Assembly: GCA_009392915.1 (NCBI GenBank)
Contig: CP045477.1
Span: 448,001-512,000, forward strand
Direction: 5' to 3'
DNA: 64,000 bases
From: Candidatus Forterrea multitransposorum CG_2015-17_Forterrea_25_41
GTDB taxonomy: Archaea; Iainarchaeota; Iainarchaeia; Iainarchaeales; CSSED10-239
The notes beneath the pieces were generated by a model. That model worked only from the letters and a program-made list of their open reading frames with translations. It did not search any database and had not been told where the DNA came from. The translations under genes and the position numbers were made by a program. Positions 26,416-40,362 of this stretch are shown here, in pieces (the first letter of the stretch is position 1; every line of letters starts with the position of its first letter).

Positions 26416-27180
26416 CTATTTTTTAAAACCAGATATAAAAAATAAAGTTTTCTTTTCAAAAACTTTAAATAACTCAAATCCCTTAAACTCAGGAGAATAT
26501 TTAAGAAGAGAAATATTTTCTTCTAAAAACCATTTTTTAACTTCTTTGATAGTATGGTAAGACTCAAAAGGAACTAAATATCTATCATAAATAGAATTTT
26601 TTGGAGCATTCTTTAATGGTTTTAATAAAAAAGAATGATTAAAATAATAATCTAGTTTTTTAGGATCTTTTGAAAAGAAAGTATGTAGTAAAAACCTAAT
26701 AATTCTATACCTTAATCTTGCAAATTTATGATAAAGTGCAATAGTTATGACACCATTTTTTTTTAAAAGAGAAGTTAGTTTTTTAAAACCTTTAAAAGCA
26801 TCTTCTGTATGATGTAAAACCCCTATTGAAAAAATATAATCAAATGTTCCTAAATCACTTAAATCATCATTTAAAATATCTTTTTGAAAAATTTTAATAT
26901 TTAATTTTTCATCAATTACTCTCTTTCTAAGAACAGACAACTGTCCAGAAGATAGATCAATTGAAGTAACCTTTGCCCCTTTTTTTGCAAGAAAAATAGA
27001 TTTTTCTCCAGTTCCACATCCAGCATCTAGTATTTTTTTACCTCTTAGGTCTTTTAAGTCTGCTTTAGAGTAAGAAATAATACCAGAAATTAGTTTATTA
27101 TGTTTTTTTCTTTGACGATTAGTATAAAGTTTAATTAAAGGATAATTATAGTTATCATAATAATTTTTTACTTCTTTCAT
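26416..27180 (-). CDS. class I SAM-dependent methyltransferase
   Basis: Motif I ILDAGCGTGEKSIFLAKKGAKVTSIDLS. Confidence 0.7.
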   Translation of the reverse strand: MKEVKNYYDNYNYPLIKLYTNRQRKKHNKLISGIISYSKADLKDLRGKKILDAGCGTGEKSIFLAKKGAKVTSIDLSSGQLSVLRKRVIDEKLNIKIFQKDILNDDLSDLGTFDYIFSIGVLHHTEDAFKGFKKLTSLLKKNGVITIALYHKFARLRYRIIRFLLHTFFSKDPKKLDYYFNHSFLLKPLKNAPKNSIYDRYLVPFESYHTIKEVKKWFLEENISLLKYSPEFKGFELFKVFEKKTLFFISGFKK

Positions 27181-27836
27181 AATTTAATCAAAGACTTTAG
27201 TTTATTTAAAGTTATTTCTTTAGTACTTTTTACAATTAAAGAAGCTTTTAATTTTTTAAAATCAGAAACTGTAGTAAATTCTGATAACACACCTACAGAT
27301 TTTAGACCAGCTCTATGAATAGAAACAATACCTTGAAGAGAATCTTCTATTCCTACACATTCATTAGATGAAAGTTTTAAAAAAGTTAAAGGATTATAAA
27401 AAGCATCTTTGTAAGGTTTATGTCTTTTAATATCTTCAGAAGTTAAAATTAAATCAAAATAATCTAAAAGATTAAATTTATTAAGTAAAAACAAAATATT
27501 TTCTTTTTCATTTGAAGAAGAAATAACAATTTTAATATTATTTTTCTTTAATGTTTTTAAAAGATTAATTATACCTGGGTTAGGTTTTATTTCTTTTAAG
27601 AAAGAATAAAAAATATCATGTTTTTCAGAAATATAATCTGAAAGCTTTATTGAAAGATTATATTTTTTATTTACATATTTTAGAAAATCTTTAGTTGTTG
27701 TTGCAAGATTTTCTTTTTGTTCTTTTTTTGTAAATTTTATATTATATTTTTTAAAAAAAAGTTCTCTAGTCTTAAGATAATATTTAGCAGAGTTAAATAA
27801 TACTCCATCAAAATCAAAAATAACAGCTTTTAACAT
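27177..27836 (-). CDS. HAD-superfamily hydrolase (beta-phosphoglucomutase/phosphatase-like)
   Basis: Motif I VIFDFDGVL. Downstream S/T, K and D motifs (GIEDSLQG). Start overlaps the neighbouring gene. Confidence 0.7.
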   Translation of the reverse strand: MLKAVIFDFDGVLFNSAKYYLKTRELFFKKYNIKFTKKEQKENLATTTKDFLKYVNKKYNLSIKLSDYISEKHDIFYSFLKEIKPNPGIINLLKTLKKNNIKIVISSSNEKENILFLLNKFNLLDYFDLILTSEDIKRHKPYKDAFYNPLTFLKLSSNECVGIEDSLQGIVSIHRAGLKSVGVLSEFTTVSDFKKLKASLIVKSTKEITLNKLKSLIKL

Positions 27837-27908
27837 AAATTTACACCTATAAAAAAAATGATTAATAATAAAAAAAAAGAAAAAAGAAAAAATGATTTTA
27901 AAAAAAAA

Positions 27909-28370
27909 TTATCTATCTTTCCATGCAACAAGACCTATTATTACTAAATATGCAATTCCAACAAAAATATTTACTATTGGAATAATAGCTAAAATAGGTA
28001 CTAAAGCAAGCCATCCAGGATACTTTCTTTTCTCAAAGATTCTCCACATGGATATTAAAGCTAGAACCATTACAGCAGCCCATCCTAAAACAGGAACTAA
28101 TAGTAAGAATATTAATGCCCAATGGAATCCACCAAGCTCTAAGATCATTGCATAATTTGCAATTGGGATCCATGCAAGCCAAGCTTTTTTATATTTTAAT
28201 TTTTTTCCAATAGTTTGGAATGCAAGTGCTGTATAAATATATAAAGCAACACCAACTATACCAGCTAATAAAGCCATACCAGCAATTAAAGCAATTATAC
28301 CACCTAATGCTTCAGGACTAGCTGTCATATTAGTGCTATCAACTGCAGCAAATAACATATTTGAAAACAT
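27909..28370 (-). CDS. small polytopic membrane protein (153 aa)
   Basis: Four hydrophobic helices. Confidence 0.35.
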   Translation of the reverse strand: MFSNMLFAAVDSTNMTASPEALGGIIALIAGMALLAGIVGVALYIYTALAFQTIGKKLKYKKAWLAWIPIANYAMILELGGFHWALIFLLLVPVLGWAAVMVLALISMWRIFEKRKYPGWLALVPILAIIPIVNIFVGIAYLVIIGLVAWKDR

Positions 28371-30190: not shown

Positions 30191-30919
30191 TTACTTCTTC
30201 TTTTTATCATCTTTTTTAGCAGCAGGAGCAGCTTTACCAGCTGGAGCTTTTGAATCTTTACCAGCAACAACTTTACCTTTTGCAGCTTTAAGTTCTTGAG
30301 CTTTTGCTTCTTCTGCTTTCTTTTCTTCTTCTGCCATAGCAGCAAGTTTTCTTCTCTTCTTTGTAGTTCCAACAGATTTTAAGTTGTCTTTATTTTCTTC
30401 AATTACAACTTTCATTCTACAAGGAAGTTTAGAATCAAGTCTTTCAAAGACTTTTTTTACAAATTCAACATTTGCTTCATCAACTAAAACACTAAATAAT
30501 TTTTGATTAGATTTAACTCTTGCAGCAACACCAACAACTTTTCCAAAAGGGCATTGACTCATACCTTGTTGAATTCTGTCGGCTTTAGCACCTTGAGCTT
30601 GTTTATTTTCTCTTAAGAAAAATTGAGGATATACTCTTAATTTCATATAGAAATTTTGAGCAGTTAATTTTTTATTTAAGTTTCTTACAACAGTTGTTCT
30701 TACAGATTCTAAAGCTGAATCTCTAATTTGTATTTTTTCAGAAGTTACATAATGAACTACATGAGAATATTGTTTTTCTCCAAAACCCATATGGTATTGT
30801 CTAACTTTAATACCTGGAGTTCCGCCTACATAGTTCTTTCTATGCACTCTTTTTGCAACTCTTGTATATGCTCTTTTATTTACTTTTGGATTATAACAAT
30901 GTCCTGGTCTAACACCCAT
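30191..30919 (-). CDS. rpl10e: ribosomal protein uL16 (L10e) with a roughly 70-aa K/A/E-rich C-terminal extension
   Basis: MGVRPGHCYNPKVNKRAYTRVAKR... is the eukaryote/archaea-type L10e N-terminus. C-terminal tail KKRRKLAAMAEEEKKAEEAKAQELKAAKGK...KKDDKKKK. Confidence 0.8.
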   Translation of the reverse strand: MGVRPGHCYNPKVNKRAYTRVAKRVHRKNYVGGTPGIKVRQYHMGFGEKQYSHVVHYVTSEKIQIRDSALESVRTTVVRNLNKKLTAQNFYMKLRVYPQFFLRENKQAQGAKADRIQQGMSQCPFGKVVGVAARVKSNQKLFSVLVDEANVEFVKKVFERLDSKLPCRMKVVIEENKDNLKSVGTTKKRRKLAAMAEEEKKAEEAKAQELKAAKGKVVAGKDSKAPAGKAAPAAKKDDKKKK

Positions 30920-31290: not shown

Positions 31291-33081
31291 TCATCCATAA
31301 GTAGTTGCTTTAATACTTTTAACTACACCACTTACAAGAACCCAGCCACCCCATTGACCAGTATTTCTGGATGAATTGGTTACAGATAAAGTCCAACCAG
31401 GTTCACTGTCACCAACTTCCCAATATTTACATTTTTTAGAAGAACCAAAAGCTTCTACTTTAATATTATAATTACCAGCAGGAACTTTCCAAGATCCATC
31501 TTTATCAGTTGCAAGTTGTGAACCACCATATTTAAGATATAAACCATCATTTCCATAATCATTAGTTATTGAACAAACATATGAAGCACTTGTTGAAGAA
31601 TAATTAAAAGTGAGACCTGCTTGAGAAGTATCATTTTCAGAAGCTAAACTAACTACTCCTTCTAAAACTAAATTACCTTGTGTACTTAAACCCTGGTAAA
31701 AGAAACCTGCAGAAGACCAAAATTCATTTAATTTAACACCACCACCTGAGAACGCAGGCTGAGCTACAACTGTACCACCTGATTGCGACCAACCAGACAA
31801 ACTAGTAATACTAGTTTGATTTAATAAAACTACAGCAGGAGCTGATAGAACAAGATTAATACTTGAACTTGTTGCTGTTCTTGAAGCACCATCTGTTACA
31901 GTTACTCTAATATATTTTGTACCAGTAGTTGAAAATGAATAAGTTGGATTTGAAACTGAAGTTCCAAAAACAATCCAAGTACTTTGATTTGTACTATATT
32001 CCCAGGAATAATTAGATACTCCAGAAACTGCATTACTTACAGAAGAATTAAAACTTATTGTTTGACCAGTATCATAATTTGTACCAGTTGTTGGAGAAGT
32101 AACACTTACAGCTAAAGGATCACTAATTAAAATATTACTAACAGTATCAGAATAAACTTGATTAATAGGAGAAGGTCTTGAAGCATCTGTAACTAAAACT
32201 CTAAACTCATAAGTCCCACCTGTTGCAAAACCATTTGTTGTAGTATAACTATTAGAACCAAAGTTAGTCCAACCAGTACTGTTTCTATTATACTGCCATT
32301 GATAAGATTTAGTACCAATTGCATTTGAAACACCTACATCAAATATTATTCCTTCACTAAGATTATAAACATCACTTGCATCAGGAGTATAAATAGTTGC
32401 TGTTAATGGAAGAACAACTGTAAAATCTTCACTTGAAGTTGAAATATCTCCAGTTCCAGAATCTGTTACTTTATAATAAATAGTATAGCTTCCTGTTGAA
32501 GATAAAGTTTGAGATAAAGAAGCACAATTAGTACCAACTGCAGTATTAGTATCATTTGAGTTTAATATCCATTCACAAGAAACTGTTGAAACATTATTAT
32601 CATAATTTCCAGTAAATGAAATTGTTTCATTATTATTCCAAGTAGTTCTTGACATTGTAATACTTGAAGATAACAAATCTAAAATATTTATTCCAATTGT
32701 TTGAGAATCACTTGAAGAATCAAAATCATCTAAAGTATCTAATTTAATTGAATAATCATTAAATACTGAAAAAGAATAACTTGTATTACAATCAGTACTA
32801 AAAGATGTAAATGATGGTAAGTCAGCTCTCTTATGACTCCAATTACAAGTTACATTTCCAACATTATTACTATATGAAGAATTAAAATTAATTGTTTTTG
32901 TAACATTATAATTTGATTCTTCTGTTGGATTTAATATTGTTGATGAAAAATCATCAAAAATTTCAACAAATAAATCATCACTAAAAGTTCCTTCATCATC
33001 ATTTGCAATTACTAAAATTTCATAAATTCCAGGAGTTGTAAAAGTATAAGAAATATCACACAAGGTATCTGAAGGATTCAT
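31291..33081 (-). CDS. Ser/Thr-rich PKD/Ig-like repeat adhesin region; probably the C-terminal part of a giant pilin-like protein, in frame with ORF 33220..33744 across a single TAA
   Basis: No signal peptide of its own. Repeated V[ST]C[EN]W...C...Y.F...G.Y modules. The same module spans the annotated ATG, since the 46 codons upstream (…RGSVSCEWYHTIAGGSQVR-M-NPSDTL…) are domain-like and sense-coding up to the TAA at 33220..33222. Confidence 0.55.
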   Translation of the reverse strand: MNPSDTLCDISYTFTTPGIYEILVIANDDEGTFSDDLFVEIFDDFSSTILNPTEESNYNVTKTINFNSSYSNNVGNVTCNWSHKRADLPSFTSFSTDCNTSYSFSVFNDYSIKLDTLDDFDSSSDSQTIGINILDLLSSSITMSRTTWNNNETISFTGNYDNNVSTVSCEWILNSNDTNTAVGTNCASLSQTLSSTGSYTIYYKVTDSGTGDISTSSEDFTVVLPLTATIYTPDASDVYNLSEGIIFDVGVSNAIGTKSYQWQYNRNSTGWTNFGSNSYTTTNGFATGGTYEFRVLVTDASRPSPINQVYSDTVSNILISDPLAVSVTSPTTGTNYDTGQTISFNSSVSNAVSGVSNYSWEYSTNQSTWIVFGTSVSNPTYSFSTTGTKYIRVTVTDGASRTATSSSINLVLSAPAVVLLNQTSITSLSGWSQSGGTVVAQPAFSGGGVKLNEFWSSAGFFYQGLSTQGNLVLEGVVSLASENDTSQAGLTFNYSSTSASYVCSITNDYGNDGLYLKYGGSQLATDKDGSWKVPAGNYNIKVEAFGSSKKCKYWEVGDSEPGWTLSVTNSSRNTGQWGGWVLVSGVVKSIKATTYG

Positions 33082-33219
33082 TCTTACTTGTGATCCACCT
33101 GCAATTGTATGATACCATTCACAAGAAACACTTCCTCTTTGATAAAGTGTATCAGTTTCAAAAGAAACAGAAGTGTTTACTCTGAATGAATCAAAATTTG
33201 TAACATTTGAAAAGAAAAT

Positions 33220-33744
33220 TTAAGAAGATGGAAGTTCTACAGCACATTTTCTTAAATCAATTGTTTTTTTAGGACAAGTAGAGTTTGATAAAGTAAAAAC
33301 CTTTAAATCTAAAGGATCAATTATTTCTCCAGAATCAACATTAATATCAGAATTTACAATTGTAAAATCAGTTGTTGATTTTAATTTTTTAATTTCTCCA
33401 GATAAAATAGGATTATCAAAATTACCATACATTTTTAGAACATTTGAAGAATTTTGAGAAGTTCCTTGAATATTTAAAGAAAGATTATAAAAATCAATAG
33501 GGGTTGGGTTTCTTAATAAAACTTCAATATTTCCAGTAGTTGAATCAAGATTACAAGATTCTACAACTAAATTATACTTAATACAATCCATTCTAGAAAC
33601 TTCTTGTAATTGATCTTGTGAAACATCTAATTTTTCTCTAACAGATGTTTTTGACCAAGATAAAAATCCTGCAACTAAAACAGCTGTTACCAAGATTAAT
33701 AAAACTACAGAAATTATTGCCGAAATTGATTTTTTTCTATTCAT
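33220..33744 (-). CDS. archaeal type IV pilin-like protein with a class III signal peptide (N-terminal part of the interrupted adhesin gene)
   Basis: MNRKKS|ISAIISVVLLILVTAVLVAGFL: basic residues, a small residue at -1, then a hydrophobic helix, typical of a PibD/FlaK substrate. Shares its reading frame with the downstream 596-aa ORF. Confidence 0.55.
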   Translation of the reverse strand: MNRKKSISAIISVVLLILVTAVLVAGFLSWSKTSVREKLDVSQDQLQEVSRMDCIKYNLVVESCNLDSTTGNIEVLLRNPTPIDFYNLSLNIQGTSQNSSNVLKMYGNFDNPILSGEIKKLKSTTDFTIVNSDINVDSGEIIDPLDLKVFTLSNSTCPKKTIDLRKCAVELPSS

Positions 33745-33830: not shown

Positions 33831-34172
33831 TTAAAAAGAAATAATATCATTTATTTTTATAAAAGAAATATCTGTTTCAATTGGAAGTTCAATTATATAT
33901 TTAGCTTTCTTTTTTGGAGAATAAAAAGTAAAAGGTCTTAATCTTTTTTTAATATCAATAACTTTTTTATTTGAATCTAGAAAAAGAACATTTATTGAAT
34001 AGAAAACAAAAAGCATATGAATTGAAGAGCCTACAATAGATTCATATTCTCTTTTAAAAATAAGACCAAAATCAAATTTCTTTCTTGGAAAAAACATAAG
34101 TCCAAGTCCTTGTTTTAAAGGAGAAATTATTTTCTTTTTTTTAATTATTATTTTATTATTAACTTTTATCAA
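33831..34172 (-). CDS. DUF192 (COG1430)-like small protein
   Basis: GLGLMFFPRKKFDFGLIF...SIHMLFV pattern typical of the DUF192 family. Sits inside the pilus-like locus. Confidence 0.45.
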   Translation of the reverse strand: MIKVNNKIIIKKKKIISPLKQGLGLMFFPRKKFDFGLIFKREYESIVGSSIHMLFVFYSINVLFLDSNKKVIDIKKRLRPFTFYSPKKKAKYIIELPIETDISFIKINDIISF

Positions 34173-34178
34173 AAATAA

Positions 34179-35330
34179 TCACACTTTTTTTTTTAAACTT
34201 ACCCTATATAAAATAACAAAATCAATATCAGATTTTCTAATCTCAAAATCAAAAAATACAGCATCTGGTACAAAAATAGCATACTCTGCACAAGAAAGAC
34301 CACATTCACTTTGATCAAAAGGTAAAAAATATAGATTATTACTATATGTTTTATCTAGAATATATTTAGAACTAATAGATTTTAAAGCAATGACTTCAGA
34401 AATATTTACTTGTTCTAGCTGATTACGATTCATATAGGTAATAGTGTCAATTAAAACACTCTCAGCATCTGGTTTTGGAACAGCAATTTGAAAGATTAAA
34501 ATTGTAAATATAAAAAATATGAAAATATATTTGATAAAATTAAAACTACTTTCTTCTTTTATTGCAAACATTATAAAAGAAATAAAGATAGAAAGAACAA
34601 TTGCCATATAAAGAAGGAAATTATCAAAAAATATTCTTGTTATTAAATCTTGATCTGCATACCATAAAAAATTATTACCTAGTATAATATTTATGAATAA
34701 AATTACAACTAAAAAGATTACAAATAAAACAATGGATAAATAATATAAATTTAAAAAATATTTTTTCTTTTGTGTTTCTTCTTTAAAAATAGAAATATCT
34801 TTTGAAATATTTAAAAGAACTCTATCAAGAGGTATAGAACTTTCTTTAAAAGTCTTTAACAATATTAAAGTGTGAGTGATTATTGGACTTTTAATAGTCT
34901 CATTAATACCTGATAAAGCATTTTCAAAATCATCTCCCCAAGAAACTCTATTTGCTATTCTTTTTATTTCTGTATCAATTGAACCATAAACATTTGATGT
35001 TGTGATATTGTTTAATGATATTGATAAATTATTTGTAGATTTATACTCTCTCGATAAATCTTGTAAAAAGAATGTAAAAGAAGTTTCAATTGCTTTCTTT
35101 TTAAAGTGTTTTAAAACATATTCTAAAACAAAACCTAAAAAACTTACGAAAAAACCAAAAAAGAAAACTGCATAGTATAATTCAGTATGAAGAAAATATT
35201 TATTTGATAAATGAACAATTAAAAGACCAGATAAAATACTTGCAAGAATTAATATTTGGTATTCATAATTATAAATTAATAGTTTTAATTTAATATTCAT
35301 TTTATCTAAAAATTTATTTTTTTCTATCAT
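34179..35330 (-). CDS. T2SSF-domain (TadC/FlaJ-like) membrane platform protein
   Basis: N-terminal TMs, a cytoplasmic helical segment ETSFTFFLQDLSREYKSTNNLSISL and C-terminal TMs. Confidence 0.45.
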   Translation of the reverse strand: MIEKNKFLDKMNIKLKLLIYNYEYQILILASILSGLLIVHLSNKYFLHTELYYAVFFFGFFVSFLGFVLEYVLKHFKKKAIETSFTFFLQDLSREYKSTNNLSISLNNITTSNVYGSIDTEIKRIANRVSWGDDFENALSGINETIKSPIITHTLILLKTFKESSIPLDRVLLNISKDISIFKEETQKKKYFLNLYYLSIVLFVIFLVVILFINIILGNNFLWYADQDLITRIFFDNFLLYMAIVLSIFISFIMFAIKEESSFNFIKYIFIFFIFTILIFQIAVPKPDAESVLIDTITYMNRNQLEQVNISEVIALKSISSKYILDKTYSNNLYFLPFDQSECGLSCAEYAIFVPDAVFFDFEIRKSDIDFVILYRVSLKKKV

Positions 35331-35346
35331 TTAAAAATCAATCTCT

Positions 35347-36189
35347 TCATTTATATAAAATCCCAATTAATACAAATTCAATTACTGCAAATATTATTGA
35401 AAAAATCAACAATGATTCTTTTAATAAAAAATAATCTGTAAAAGTTATAAAAAATATTATTAAAATAACAATAAAAAAGAAAAATAAAAATATTGACATT
35501 AAAAATAAAATATTAATTCTACTTTTCTTTTGTTCACTTAACTCTCTTTTAGATTGTTCTAAATTAGTTAAGAAATCAAGAATAACTTGATTTAAGTCTT
35601 CTTTTTGATCAATAACTTCAATTAATTTTCTAAAGAAGTTTTTTTCAACTTCAGAATATGTTTCAGAAATTATTGATTTAAAAGTATCTTTAAGATTATG
35701 ATTTCTTTTATTTAAAGCAATTATTTTCTTTGCTTCTCTGCTTAATATATCATTATTTTCTAAGTTTTCAAAAACATTCAATACATCTTTAATAGTTAGA
35801 TTTTCATCTCTTAAAACAGATAAATGTTTTATAGATCTTTGAAATTCACTACCAATTTCTTTTTTTATATTATTTAAAATAAAAAAAGGATATTTAAATA
35901 AAAGTAAAAAAATCATAAAAGCAAAAGTAAAAGAAATAAAAATAGTTATAAAAAAACTAAAAAGATTAAACAATATTCCAAGTCTAATCATTAAATAAAT
36001 AAAAGCAAACTCTATAACTATTAAAAAAAATATAGAAATAAAAGAAATATTTGAAATATAACTAATAGAATCTTCATTGATACCAGTATATTCTAAAACT
36101 CTATCAAAATTTTTAAAAGTACCTTTAAATTGCATAACAATATCTTTTAAGAAAAATAAAGATATACTTGTTAAGAATTTACTAAACAT
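35347..36189 (-). CDS. T2SSF-domain (TadB/FlaJ-like) membrane platform protein
   Basis: TM pair, a roughly 120-aa cytoplasmic helical domain and C-terminal TMs. Immediately downstream of the FlaI-like pseudo-ATPase. Confidence 0.45.
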   Translation of the reverse strand: MFSKFLTSISLFFLKDIVMQFKGTFKNFDRVLEYTGINEDSISYISNISFISIFFLIVIEFAFIYLMIRLGILFNLFSFFITIFISFTFAFMIFLLLFKYPFFILNNIKKEIGSEFQRSIKHLSVLRDENLTIKDVLNVFENLENNDILSREAKKIIALNKRNHNLKDTFKSIISETYSEVEKNFFRKLIEVIDQKEDLNQVILDFLTNLEQSKRELSEQKKSRINILFLMSIFLFFFFIVILIIFFITFTDYFLLKESLLIFSIIFAVIEFVLIGILYK

Positions 36190-39630: not shown

Positions 39631-40362
39631 TCAAATAACAAAAGAAATAATTTTTGGAATAATTTCAAAAACATATAAAAGAATTAGAAAGATATAACTT
39701 ACTAGGATTAATATAATAAATGGAATTAAAGGAGAAAACCACACCTTAGAAATATTATGATTTTTAGCAATAACTTTAATTTTTTTAATTTCATTTTCTG
39801 GTTCAATATTTGGCATAAAAACAATTTTTGAAATTAATTTATTATTTTCTACATACAATTTTTCTAAAGGAGTATAAAAATTATTTACTTTTTTTAAAGA
39901 TAAAGGAACCCCTAAAAACATTAGATATAATGATTTAAAAAAATTATATTTAGGAAAATTTCTTGAAAATAAATTATATAAAAATAAGAAAACAGGTATA
40001 AGTAAAGTTAAAACTAAAGCAAAAAAGAAAATAAACATTGGAAAATATATATCAAAAATATTTGTAAATGATATTGCAAAAATAGTATAAAGATCCCCTT
40101 CTCCTATATATGTAAAATAACTAATCTTTCCTAAAACATAAAAAATTAATAAAAATATAAAACTTACAGCAAGTTGTATTAAATAACCTTTCCATAAAAT
40201 AAAATCTGTTTTAAAAACAAAAATACCTAAATAAAGAATACTAAAGATGGCTAAGAAAAATAAAGACATTATATTTATTTCTCTATACTTAATATCTTGA
40301 TAAGTTACATACAATAAAATAATTATAGAAAAAATAATTATTGGTAAATAAATATAATCCAT
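39631..40362 (-). CDS. A24-family prepilin/preflagellin peptidase (PibD/FlaK-like)
   Basis: Polytopic protein with the first catalytic Asp in YQDIKYREI and the second in IGEGDLYT (a GxGD-type motif). Confidence 0.7.
   Translation of the reverse strand: MDYIYLPIIIFSIIILLYVTYQDIKYREINIMSLFFLAIFSILYLGIFVFKTDFILWKGYLIQLAVSFIFLLIFYVLGKISYFTYIGEGDLYTIFAISFTNIFDIYFPMFIFFFALVLTLLIPVFLFLYNLFSRNFPKYNFFKSLYLMFLGVPLSLKKVNNFYTPLEKLYVENNKLISKIVFMPNIEPENEIKKIKVIAKNHNISKVWFSPLIPFIILILVSYIFLILLYVFEIIPKIISFVI

Follow-up and report, generated by a model that had tools for sequence, protein, structure and literature searches.

The 64,000 nucleotides analysed here (the window: positions 448,001 to 512,000 of contig CP045477.1, Candidatus Forterrea multitransposorum, Iainarchaeia) carry on their minus strand an open reading frame (ORF) of 174 codons encoding a pilin and, further on in the same frame, an ORF of 596 codons, which we regard with good confidence as the two parts of a modular archaeal type IV pilin gene recently truncated by a single C-to-T transition. 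The transition turned the codon of Gln175 from CAA into TAA, exactly in the linker between the pilin head and the stalk. Translation would now stop at codon 174 and give a bare pilin, and the 642 downstream codons would be an untranslated relic, too young for decay, yielding at best a signal-less cytoplasmic fragment. Intact orthologues were found together with one disabling mutation on a near-identical haplotype, as in a recent truncation; this is an ordinary truncation with recurrence, and no new recoding mechanism.

The two ORFs and the codons between them form a single frame (coordinates in Table 1). The sequence-only reading of this DNA had placed the stop codon of the pilin ORF in frame with the ATG of the 596-codon ORF, and rereading of the coordinates bears this out; translation of the 46 intervening codons also confirmed that they hold no stop and no ATG, GTG or TTG. 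The ATG at 33081 is codon 222 of the fused frame. Past the TAA the frame stays open for 642 codons, compared with a median of 7 codons for the other 48 listed stops of the window, which far exceeds chance. The repeat module that was said to straddle the annotated start does so both in the Pfam PKD match, which covers residues 12-86 of the post-stop translation (E=1.3e-4; 22.3 bits, slightly below the Pfam gathering cut-off of 23.5 bits), and in the AlphaFold model, where the first PKD strands begin at about residue 192 of the fused protein, before the ATG. The VSCEW motif of the first repeat likewise sits 5' of the ATG. The 46 codons align residue for residue with uninterrupted orthologues and read as coding sequence rather than spacer.

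Single-gene orthologues were found over 100% of the fused query: P0001 (813 aa, 88% identity), P0003 (814 aa) and P0004 (815 aa). P0005 and P0008 (933-934 aa) are also single genes, uninterrupted at the junction, with a different C-terminal module. These genes run through the site of the TAA, and the earlier proposal of one gene of roughly 817 codons, with class III signal, pilin head and PKD stalk, agrees with them. The residues found in the TAA column of the orthologues are Q, Q, K, T, E or D (K, T, E and D in the more distant ones), and comparison at the DNA level gave CAA (Gln) in all five closest relatives: L022, L006, L013, L012 and L017. Between L022 and the window there are about nine nucleotide differences over codons 60-450, the TAA site included (roughly 0.8% divergence). 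Because this near-identical haplotype and the four other closest relatives retain CAA, the stop is read as a very recent C-to-T nonsense mutation of the Gln175 codon, a typical mutation for an AT-biased genome (the GC content of the window is 24%). Of the causes previously offered for the interruption, recent nonsense mutation is the one that stood.

The gene is broken independently in other lineages. In L002-L005, L016 and L018 (55% identity; four sources), TTA has changed to TAA two codons downstream of the window stop, and L020, 92% identical to L002, retains TTA at this site. In L009-L011 and L019, a frameshift consistent with a CCTG duplication gives TGA one codon upstream of the window stop. 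The other two breaks are a 7-nt deletion at about codon 322 in L022 and an A6 to A4 frameshift at about codon 765 in L020. With the window stop counted, three of five breaks lie in a span of four codons at the linker (p about 6e-4 under a uniform model); if only the four lineages found from the full-length query are counted, two of four breaks lie within three codons (roughly p = 0.04, our own estimate). Since two other lineages are cut within four codons of the window stop, it appears that clean shedding of the adhesin module at the linker is permitted or even favoured. The most economical reading is that selection often permits or favours loss of this module and that breaks leaving a clean pilin module persist; the recurrent breaks suggest repeated shedding of this module.

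Two of these loci show further features. In L009 (5320..8806; also in L010, L011 and L019), a Ca. Iainarchaeum metagenome-assembled genome (MAG), there is a stand-alone 175-aa pilin paralogue ending in CFVE before its stop codon, followed in tandem by a second pilin cut from a 766-aa PKD ORF by the +1 frame change at the duplicated CCTG (CCTGCCTGA). In L020 (3940..4626) the shortening of the poly-A run puts the last ~50 codons out of frame; this break was seen on a single contig and may be an error. A second pilin-type gene lies downstream in L020, where other genomes have the ribosomal L10e gene.

The part of the protein left upstream of the stop has several features of an archaeal pilin. A class III signal was read as MNRKKS before the cleavage site and ISAIISVVLLILVTAVLVAGFL after it, with a short basic leader, a small residue at position -1 and a hydrophobic stretch of about 20 residues; the consensus leader of the family is KKAISPIISVILLILV. 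The AlphaFold2 model of the 174-aa pilin, made with a deeper alignment, has a mean predicted local distance difference test score (pLDDT) of 83.7, with a helix at residues 7-45 and a beta-sandwich at 60-170, the modelled helix-plus-head fold being complete and ending at about residue 170. The family profile matched solved archaeal type IV pilins (8rey_M, E=6.5e-4; also 8fk7, 9myg, 8gi2 and 8fj5, to 0.03), the alignment starting at their first residues, and one distant relative carries the NCBI name archaellin/type IV pilin. The window pilin itself is below threshold in Pfam and NCBIfam; Pilin_N of Pfam (PF07790) matches only one of 18 family members and does not match the window protein, and a Foldseek search of the pilin head against the PDB gave generic beta-sandwich matches, none of them significant and with no pilin among the top ones. 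Three lines of evidence place the window pilin, as a putative member, in the archaeal pilin superfamily: the leader with its helix, the match of the profile and the surrounding operon. Cleavage by the prepilin peptidase and assembly of the window pilin into a filament are predicted. The truncated product would probably be a complete, assembly-competent stand-alone pilin of the kind that relatives natively encode; we infer that it is functional because it equals the native architecture of the family at the same locus and the operon is intact.

An exhaustive HMMER scan of 1.84 billion representatives gave only 46 clusters of this pilin-module family, and the module was always at residues 1 to ~175. 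In about 15 clusters it stands alone, as a pilin of 163-179 aa, and in about 28 it carries an extension (up to 2,867 aa). Between the last Cys and the C-terminus there are 2-6 residues in the stand-alone pilins and 7 in the truncated product of the window. In L023 and L024 (42% identity), the gene of a syntenic 174-aa pilin is followed at once by the L10e gene, and nothing of the adhesin is seen. As these two loci and the stand-alone clusters match it in length, the truncated product is equivalent to an architecture native to the locus. The same ~175-residue module also heads very large metagenomic proteins (P0016, 2274 aa; P0027, 2867 aa; P0034, P0046 and P0050), and these giant members suggest a wider set of archaeal modular pilins missed by Pfam. 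No relevant earlier description came from the literature on Iainarchaeum pili, on stop readthrough in archaeal pilins or on PKD domains in type IV pili of DPANN archaea.

The ancestral gene of ~815 codons reads as a modular archaeal type IV pilin and as the last gene of a complete pilus operon, laid out as class III signal, hydrophobic helix, beta-sandwich head, short linker, five PKD/Ig domains and a C-terminal domain of ~180 aa, which probably served as an adhesin displayed on the pilus. AlphaFold modelled PKD2-5 with confidence and the C-terminal domain with low confidence. The modular layout in one polypeptide is present in P0001, P0003-P0006, P0008 and the extended clusters of the family; in the window, the TAA at codon 175 divides the modules, and the window allele is a truncated derivative of a modular pilin, no longer a member of that class. 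The prepilin peptidase, secretion ATPase and membrane platform genes of a pilus operon were all found in the window, where the operon is intact apart from the cut gene. The ribosomal L10e/uL16 gene comes next after the pilin and adhesin ORFs, and gene order was the same in all relatives fetched.

Table 1 Features of the truncated pilin gene and of the pilus operon upstream of it. Positions are those of the window.
Feature	Position	Strand	Remarks
Truncated pilin ORF, 174 codons	33223..33744	-	Class III-type leader (MNRKKS, then ISAIISVVLLILVT); helix ~7-45; head ~60-170; four Cys
In-frame TAA, codon 175	33220..33222	-	In the linker between pilin module and PKD1; CAA in the five closest relatives
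46 stop-free codons, annotated as intergenic	33082..33219	-	End of linker and first half of PKD1, including VSCEW
Orphaned ORF, 596 codons	31291..33081	-	Second half of PKD1, PKD2-PKD5 and C-terminal domain; without signal peptide; TGA at 31293..31291
PKD2 to PKD5	32949..31840	-	Fused residues ~266-635; pLDDT about 90
C-terminal domain, ~180 aa	31839..31294	-	Ends at the TGA
DUF192 gene	33831..34172	-	Directly upstream of the pilin; kept in all related loci
T2SSF (TadB/C- or FlaJ-like) membrane platform gene	34179..35330	-	
T2SSF (TadB/C- or FlaJ-like) membrane platform gene	35347..36189	-	
Secretion ATPase, 1116 aa	36197..39547	-	FlaI-like at residues 668-955
Archaeal prepilin (class III signal) peptidase	39631..40362	-	Peptidase_A24 and Arc_PepC_II

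Two neighbouring proteins extend past their matched domains. The N-terminal ~660 residues of the pilus ATPase match nothing in Pfam or NCBIfam, and the ATPases of relatives have 990-1079 aa. The L10e/uL16 gene (30191..30919, minus strand) encodes a Lys/Ala/Glu-rich tail of ~70 residues (...KKRRKLAAMAEEEKKAEEAKAQELKAAKGK...KKDDKKKK) past the Pfam domain; the proteins of relatives are similar in length (236-249 aa).

The intact frame downstream of the stop was considered in terms of age. Among random single-base changes in the downstream ORF, 5.3% create a stop. The preservation of the 642 codons would need no selection, because the ~0.8% divergence from L022 predicts fewer than one new stop. 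Downstream of the stop of the L002 lineage there are about 230 differences between L002 and L020, and about six new stops would be expected if that stop were as old as the split; as these are absent, the L002 stop would be young relative to the split. Stop-bearing copies within each lineage are identical in DNA, except for one gap in L004, and so show no divergence dating from after the stop. Recombination has made a mosaic of the adhesin gene, with identity to L006, L012, L013 and L022 jumping between about 100% and 30-60% in blocks (31294..32400): L022 matches the window over codons 51-450 and is itself L006-like over alignment columns 651-900. In P0005, P0008 and L009 the C-terminal module is exchanged for a Cadherin-like plus Gly_rich_2 module.

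Leaky termination would produce mostly the short structural pilin and, by rare readthrough, an adhesin-bearing pilin built in sparsely or at the tip; we consider this very unlikely, and no greater probability is given to its extension, in which the linker is a selected break point and rare readthrough of a leaky TAA adds a few adhesin subunits at a fixed ratio from one gene. The stop does lie exactly at the module boundary, the two other lineages interrupted within four codons also have the downstream ORF intact, as in the window, and the RNA around the stop (33100..33240, 141 nt) folds with z = -2.0 compared to shuffles. However, this hairpin is weak and far from the stop (the stem starts about 28 nt past it), and the folded stretch is near-identical, with one base different, in L022, which lacks this stop. 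The stop is moreover very young: it is not conserved among relatives as a readthrough stop would be, being replaced by CAA in the five closest and by K, T, E or D codons farther off. That one linker break of the three shifts the frame speaks against a common recoding mechanism. Neither a leaky context nor a stimulatory downstream RNA structure was found in the window: TAA ends 29 of its 49 listed ORFs, and no context is commoner than TAA-A (13 of 49), so that the nucleotides 3' of the stop, which the earlier reading had proposed to check for a readthrough-promoting context, are those of an ordinary terminator. No suppressor tRNA was found among the four ordinary tRNAs of the window, and an Rfam scan gave no relevant RNA element. 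UAA is the stop codon kept by purifying selection across all domains of life (PMC6006363); reassignment of TAA was ruled out, as it is the main terminator here and the standard code fills the window densely with ORFs. Reversible phase variation (a contingency locus for the surface adhesin), which the sequence-only reading had listed beside readthrough, gained no support either and is hardly credible. The gene is disrupted in five of about 10 lineages and short repeats occur in two of the disruptions (the CCTG duplication of L009 and the A6 tract of L020), but in the window a single base was substituted, at a site (33220..33222) free of homopolymers and tandem repeats, and the TAA state alone was seen across about 40 contigs.

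A sequencing or assembly error, with a sense codon in the true genome, was suggested by the single-base difference from the relatives and can in practice be ruled out. Where compared, the DNA of the window, of L001 (a 663-kb JGI contig) and of L014 (from another JGI sample) is 100% identical, TAA included, and the allele is real because independent assemblies share it. The exact 174-aa protein is on record on 41 contigs and the 596-aa protein on 39 (four NCBI MAG accessions each; contigs from NCBI, JGI, ENA and Logan), and the fused protein with Gln175, looked up by exact match, is absent from the collection. The TAA is present in every sampled copy of the strain, and the ancestral allele of this exact haplotype is unsampled. 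The view that the locus holds two genuine genes, one for a stand-alone pilin and one for a 596-aa PKD protein translated from the ATG at 33081, has very little probability. Gene callers annotate two genes in the four NCBI MAGs, and a Shine-Dalgarno (SD)-like AGGTGG (33095..33102, minus strand) lies 13 nt before the ATG. Yet this ATG falls in the middle of PKD1, preceded by 46 codons of homologous coding sequence, and the product would have no signal peptide though its domains are all of extracellular type. Both the Met and the AGG motif occur equally, as plain coding sequence, in the uninterrupted orthologues, where AGGTGG encodes a conserved Ala-Gly-Gly, and L002 lacks the SD-like motif. In no split relative was the downstream gene found with a signal peptide of its own, which the earlier reading had named as the mark of two separate genes.

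Some observations weigh against recent truncation as a full account of the locus. The SD-like AGGTGG precedes the ATG by 13 nt, the clustering of breaks at the linker is based on five events only, and no second pilin gene was found within the 64-kb window (as would also fit leaky termination); word-indexed protein searches, which are insensitive, turned up no paralogous pilins of the same genome. The ratio of nonsynonymous to synonymous substitution rates downstream is 0.44-0.83, with similar values for broken pairs and intact ones, a contrast that the mosaic makes uninformative. Low-level readthrough or internal initiation may still occur.

Several genuine genes of the window have AGGTG 7-10 nt before the start, a somewhat shorter distance than the 13 nt at 33081, and some genes appear to use SD-type initiation. 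In the other window genes no long open extension with homology was found past the stop. The ORF at 27909..28370 was taken up as a possible second split gene, its frame staying open for 243 codons past the stop and into the next gene (27177..28370, minus strand), and was rejected as a chance in-frame neighbour: the translation reads as a membrane protein, a T-rich spacer and then an unrelated HAD-like hydrolase.

With truncation of one gene as the preferred explanation, GW835_01335 and GW835_01340 are to be annotated, like their copies in three other MAGs, as halves of one recently truncated modular pilin gene, and most likely the 596-aa "hypothetical protein" is either not produced or not exported.

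Modular type IV pilins have been described in bacteria, e.g. PilB and PilC of Streptococcus sanguinis (Raynaud et al. 2021, PMC8179133), in a survey limited to proteins with the InterPro signature IPR012902, whose text makes no mention of archaea. The uninterrupted orthologues described here share with PilB and PilC the pilin module, the short linker and the grafted modules. They differ in that the gene is archaeal (DPANN/Iainarchaeia), in that the head, a beta-sandwich holding two Cys pairs, does not resemble those of bacterial pilins, and in the graft, which consists of five PKD domains and a swappable C-terminal domain; the window gene differs further in being cut at the linker, with the pilin module alone encoded. 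The class III leader, the N-terminal helix and the operon with peptidase, ATPase and platform are those of archaeal type IV or archaellin-like pilins, whereas the sub-threshold scores in Pfam and NCBIfam and the lack of a significant Foldseek pilin match set the window protein apart from the known ones.

As a mutation, the event resembles the unitary pseudogenes of AT-biased genomes (a single C-to-T change, intact orthologues and an undecayed downstream frame). Unlike the usual nonsense truncation, it leaves a complete and probably functional domain, and the same joint has been hit independently elsewhere. A pilin gene split into two adjacent ORFs is known from Geobacter, where the N-terminal part, PilA-N, is a short pilin and both halves, PilA-N and PilA-C, are expressed and interact. 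The downstream half here differs from PilA-C in having no export signal and in starting in the middle of a domain.

The locus brings to light a small family of archaeal pilin modules not characterised before and shows an adhesin module in the earliest stage of being lost. Surface appendages of DPANN archaea are presumed to mediate attachment, and those of the Iainarchaeal lineage may do so. The linker breaks in three lineages, the bare-pilin relatives at the locus and the swapping of C-terminal modules suggest that the adhesin modules of the pilus are gained and shed quickly. If this is true, quick turnover of modules may be how these organisms change what they stick to.

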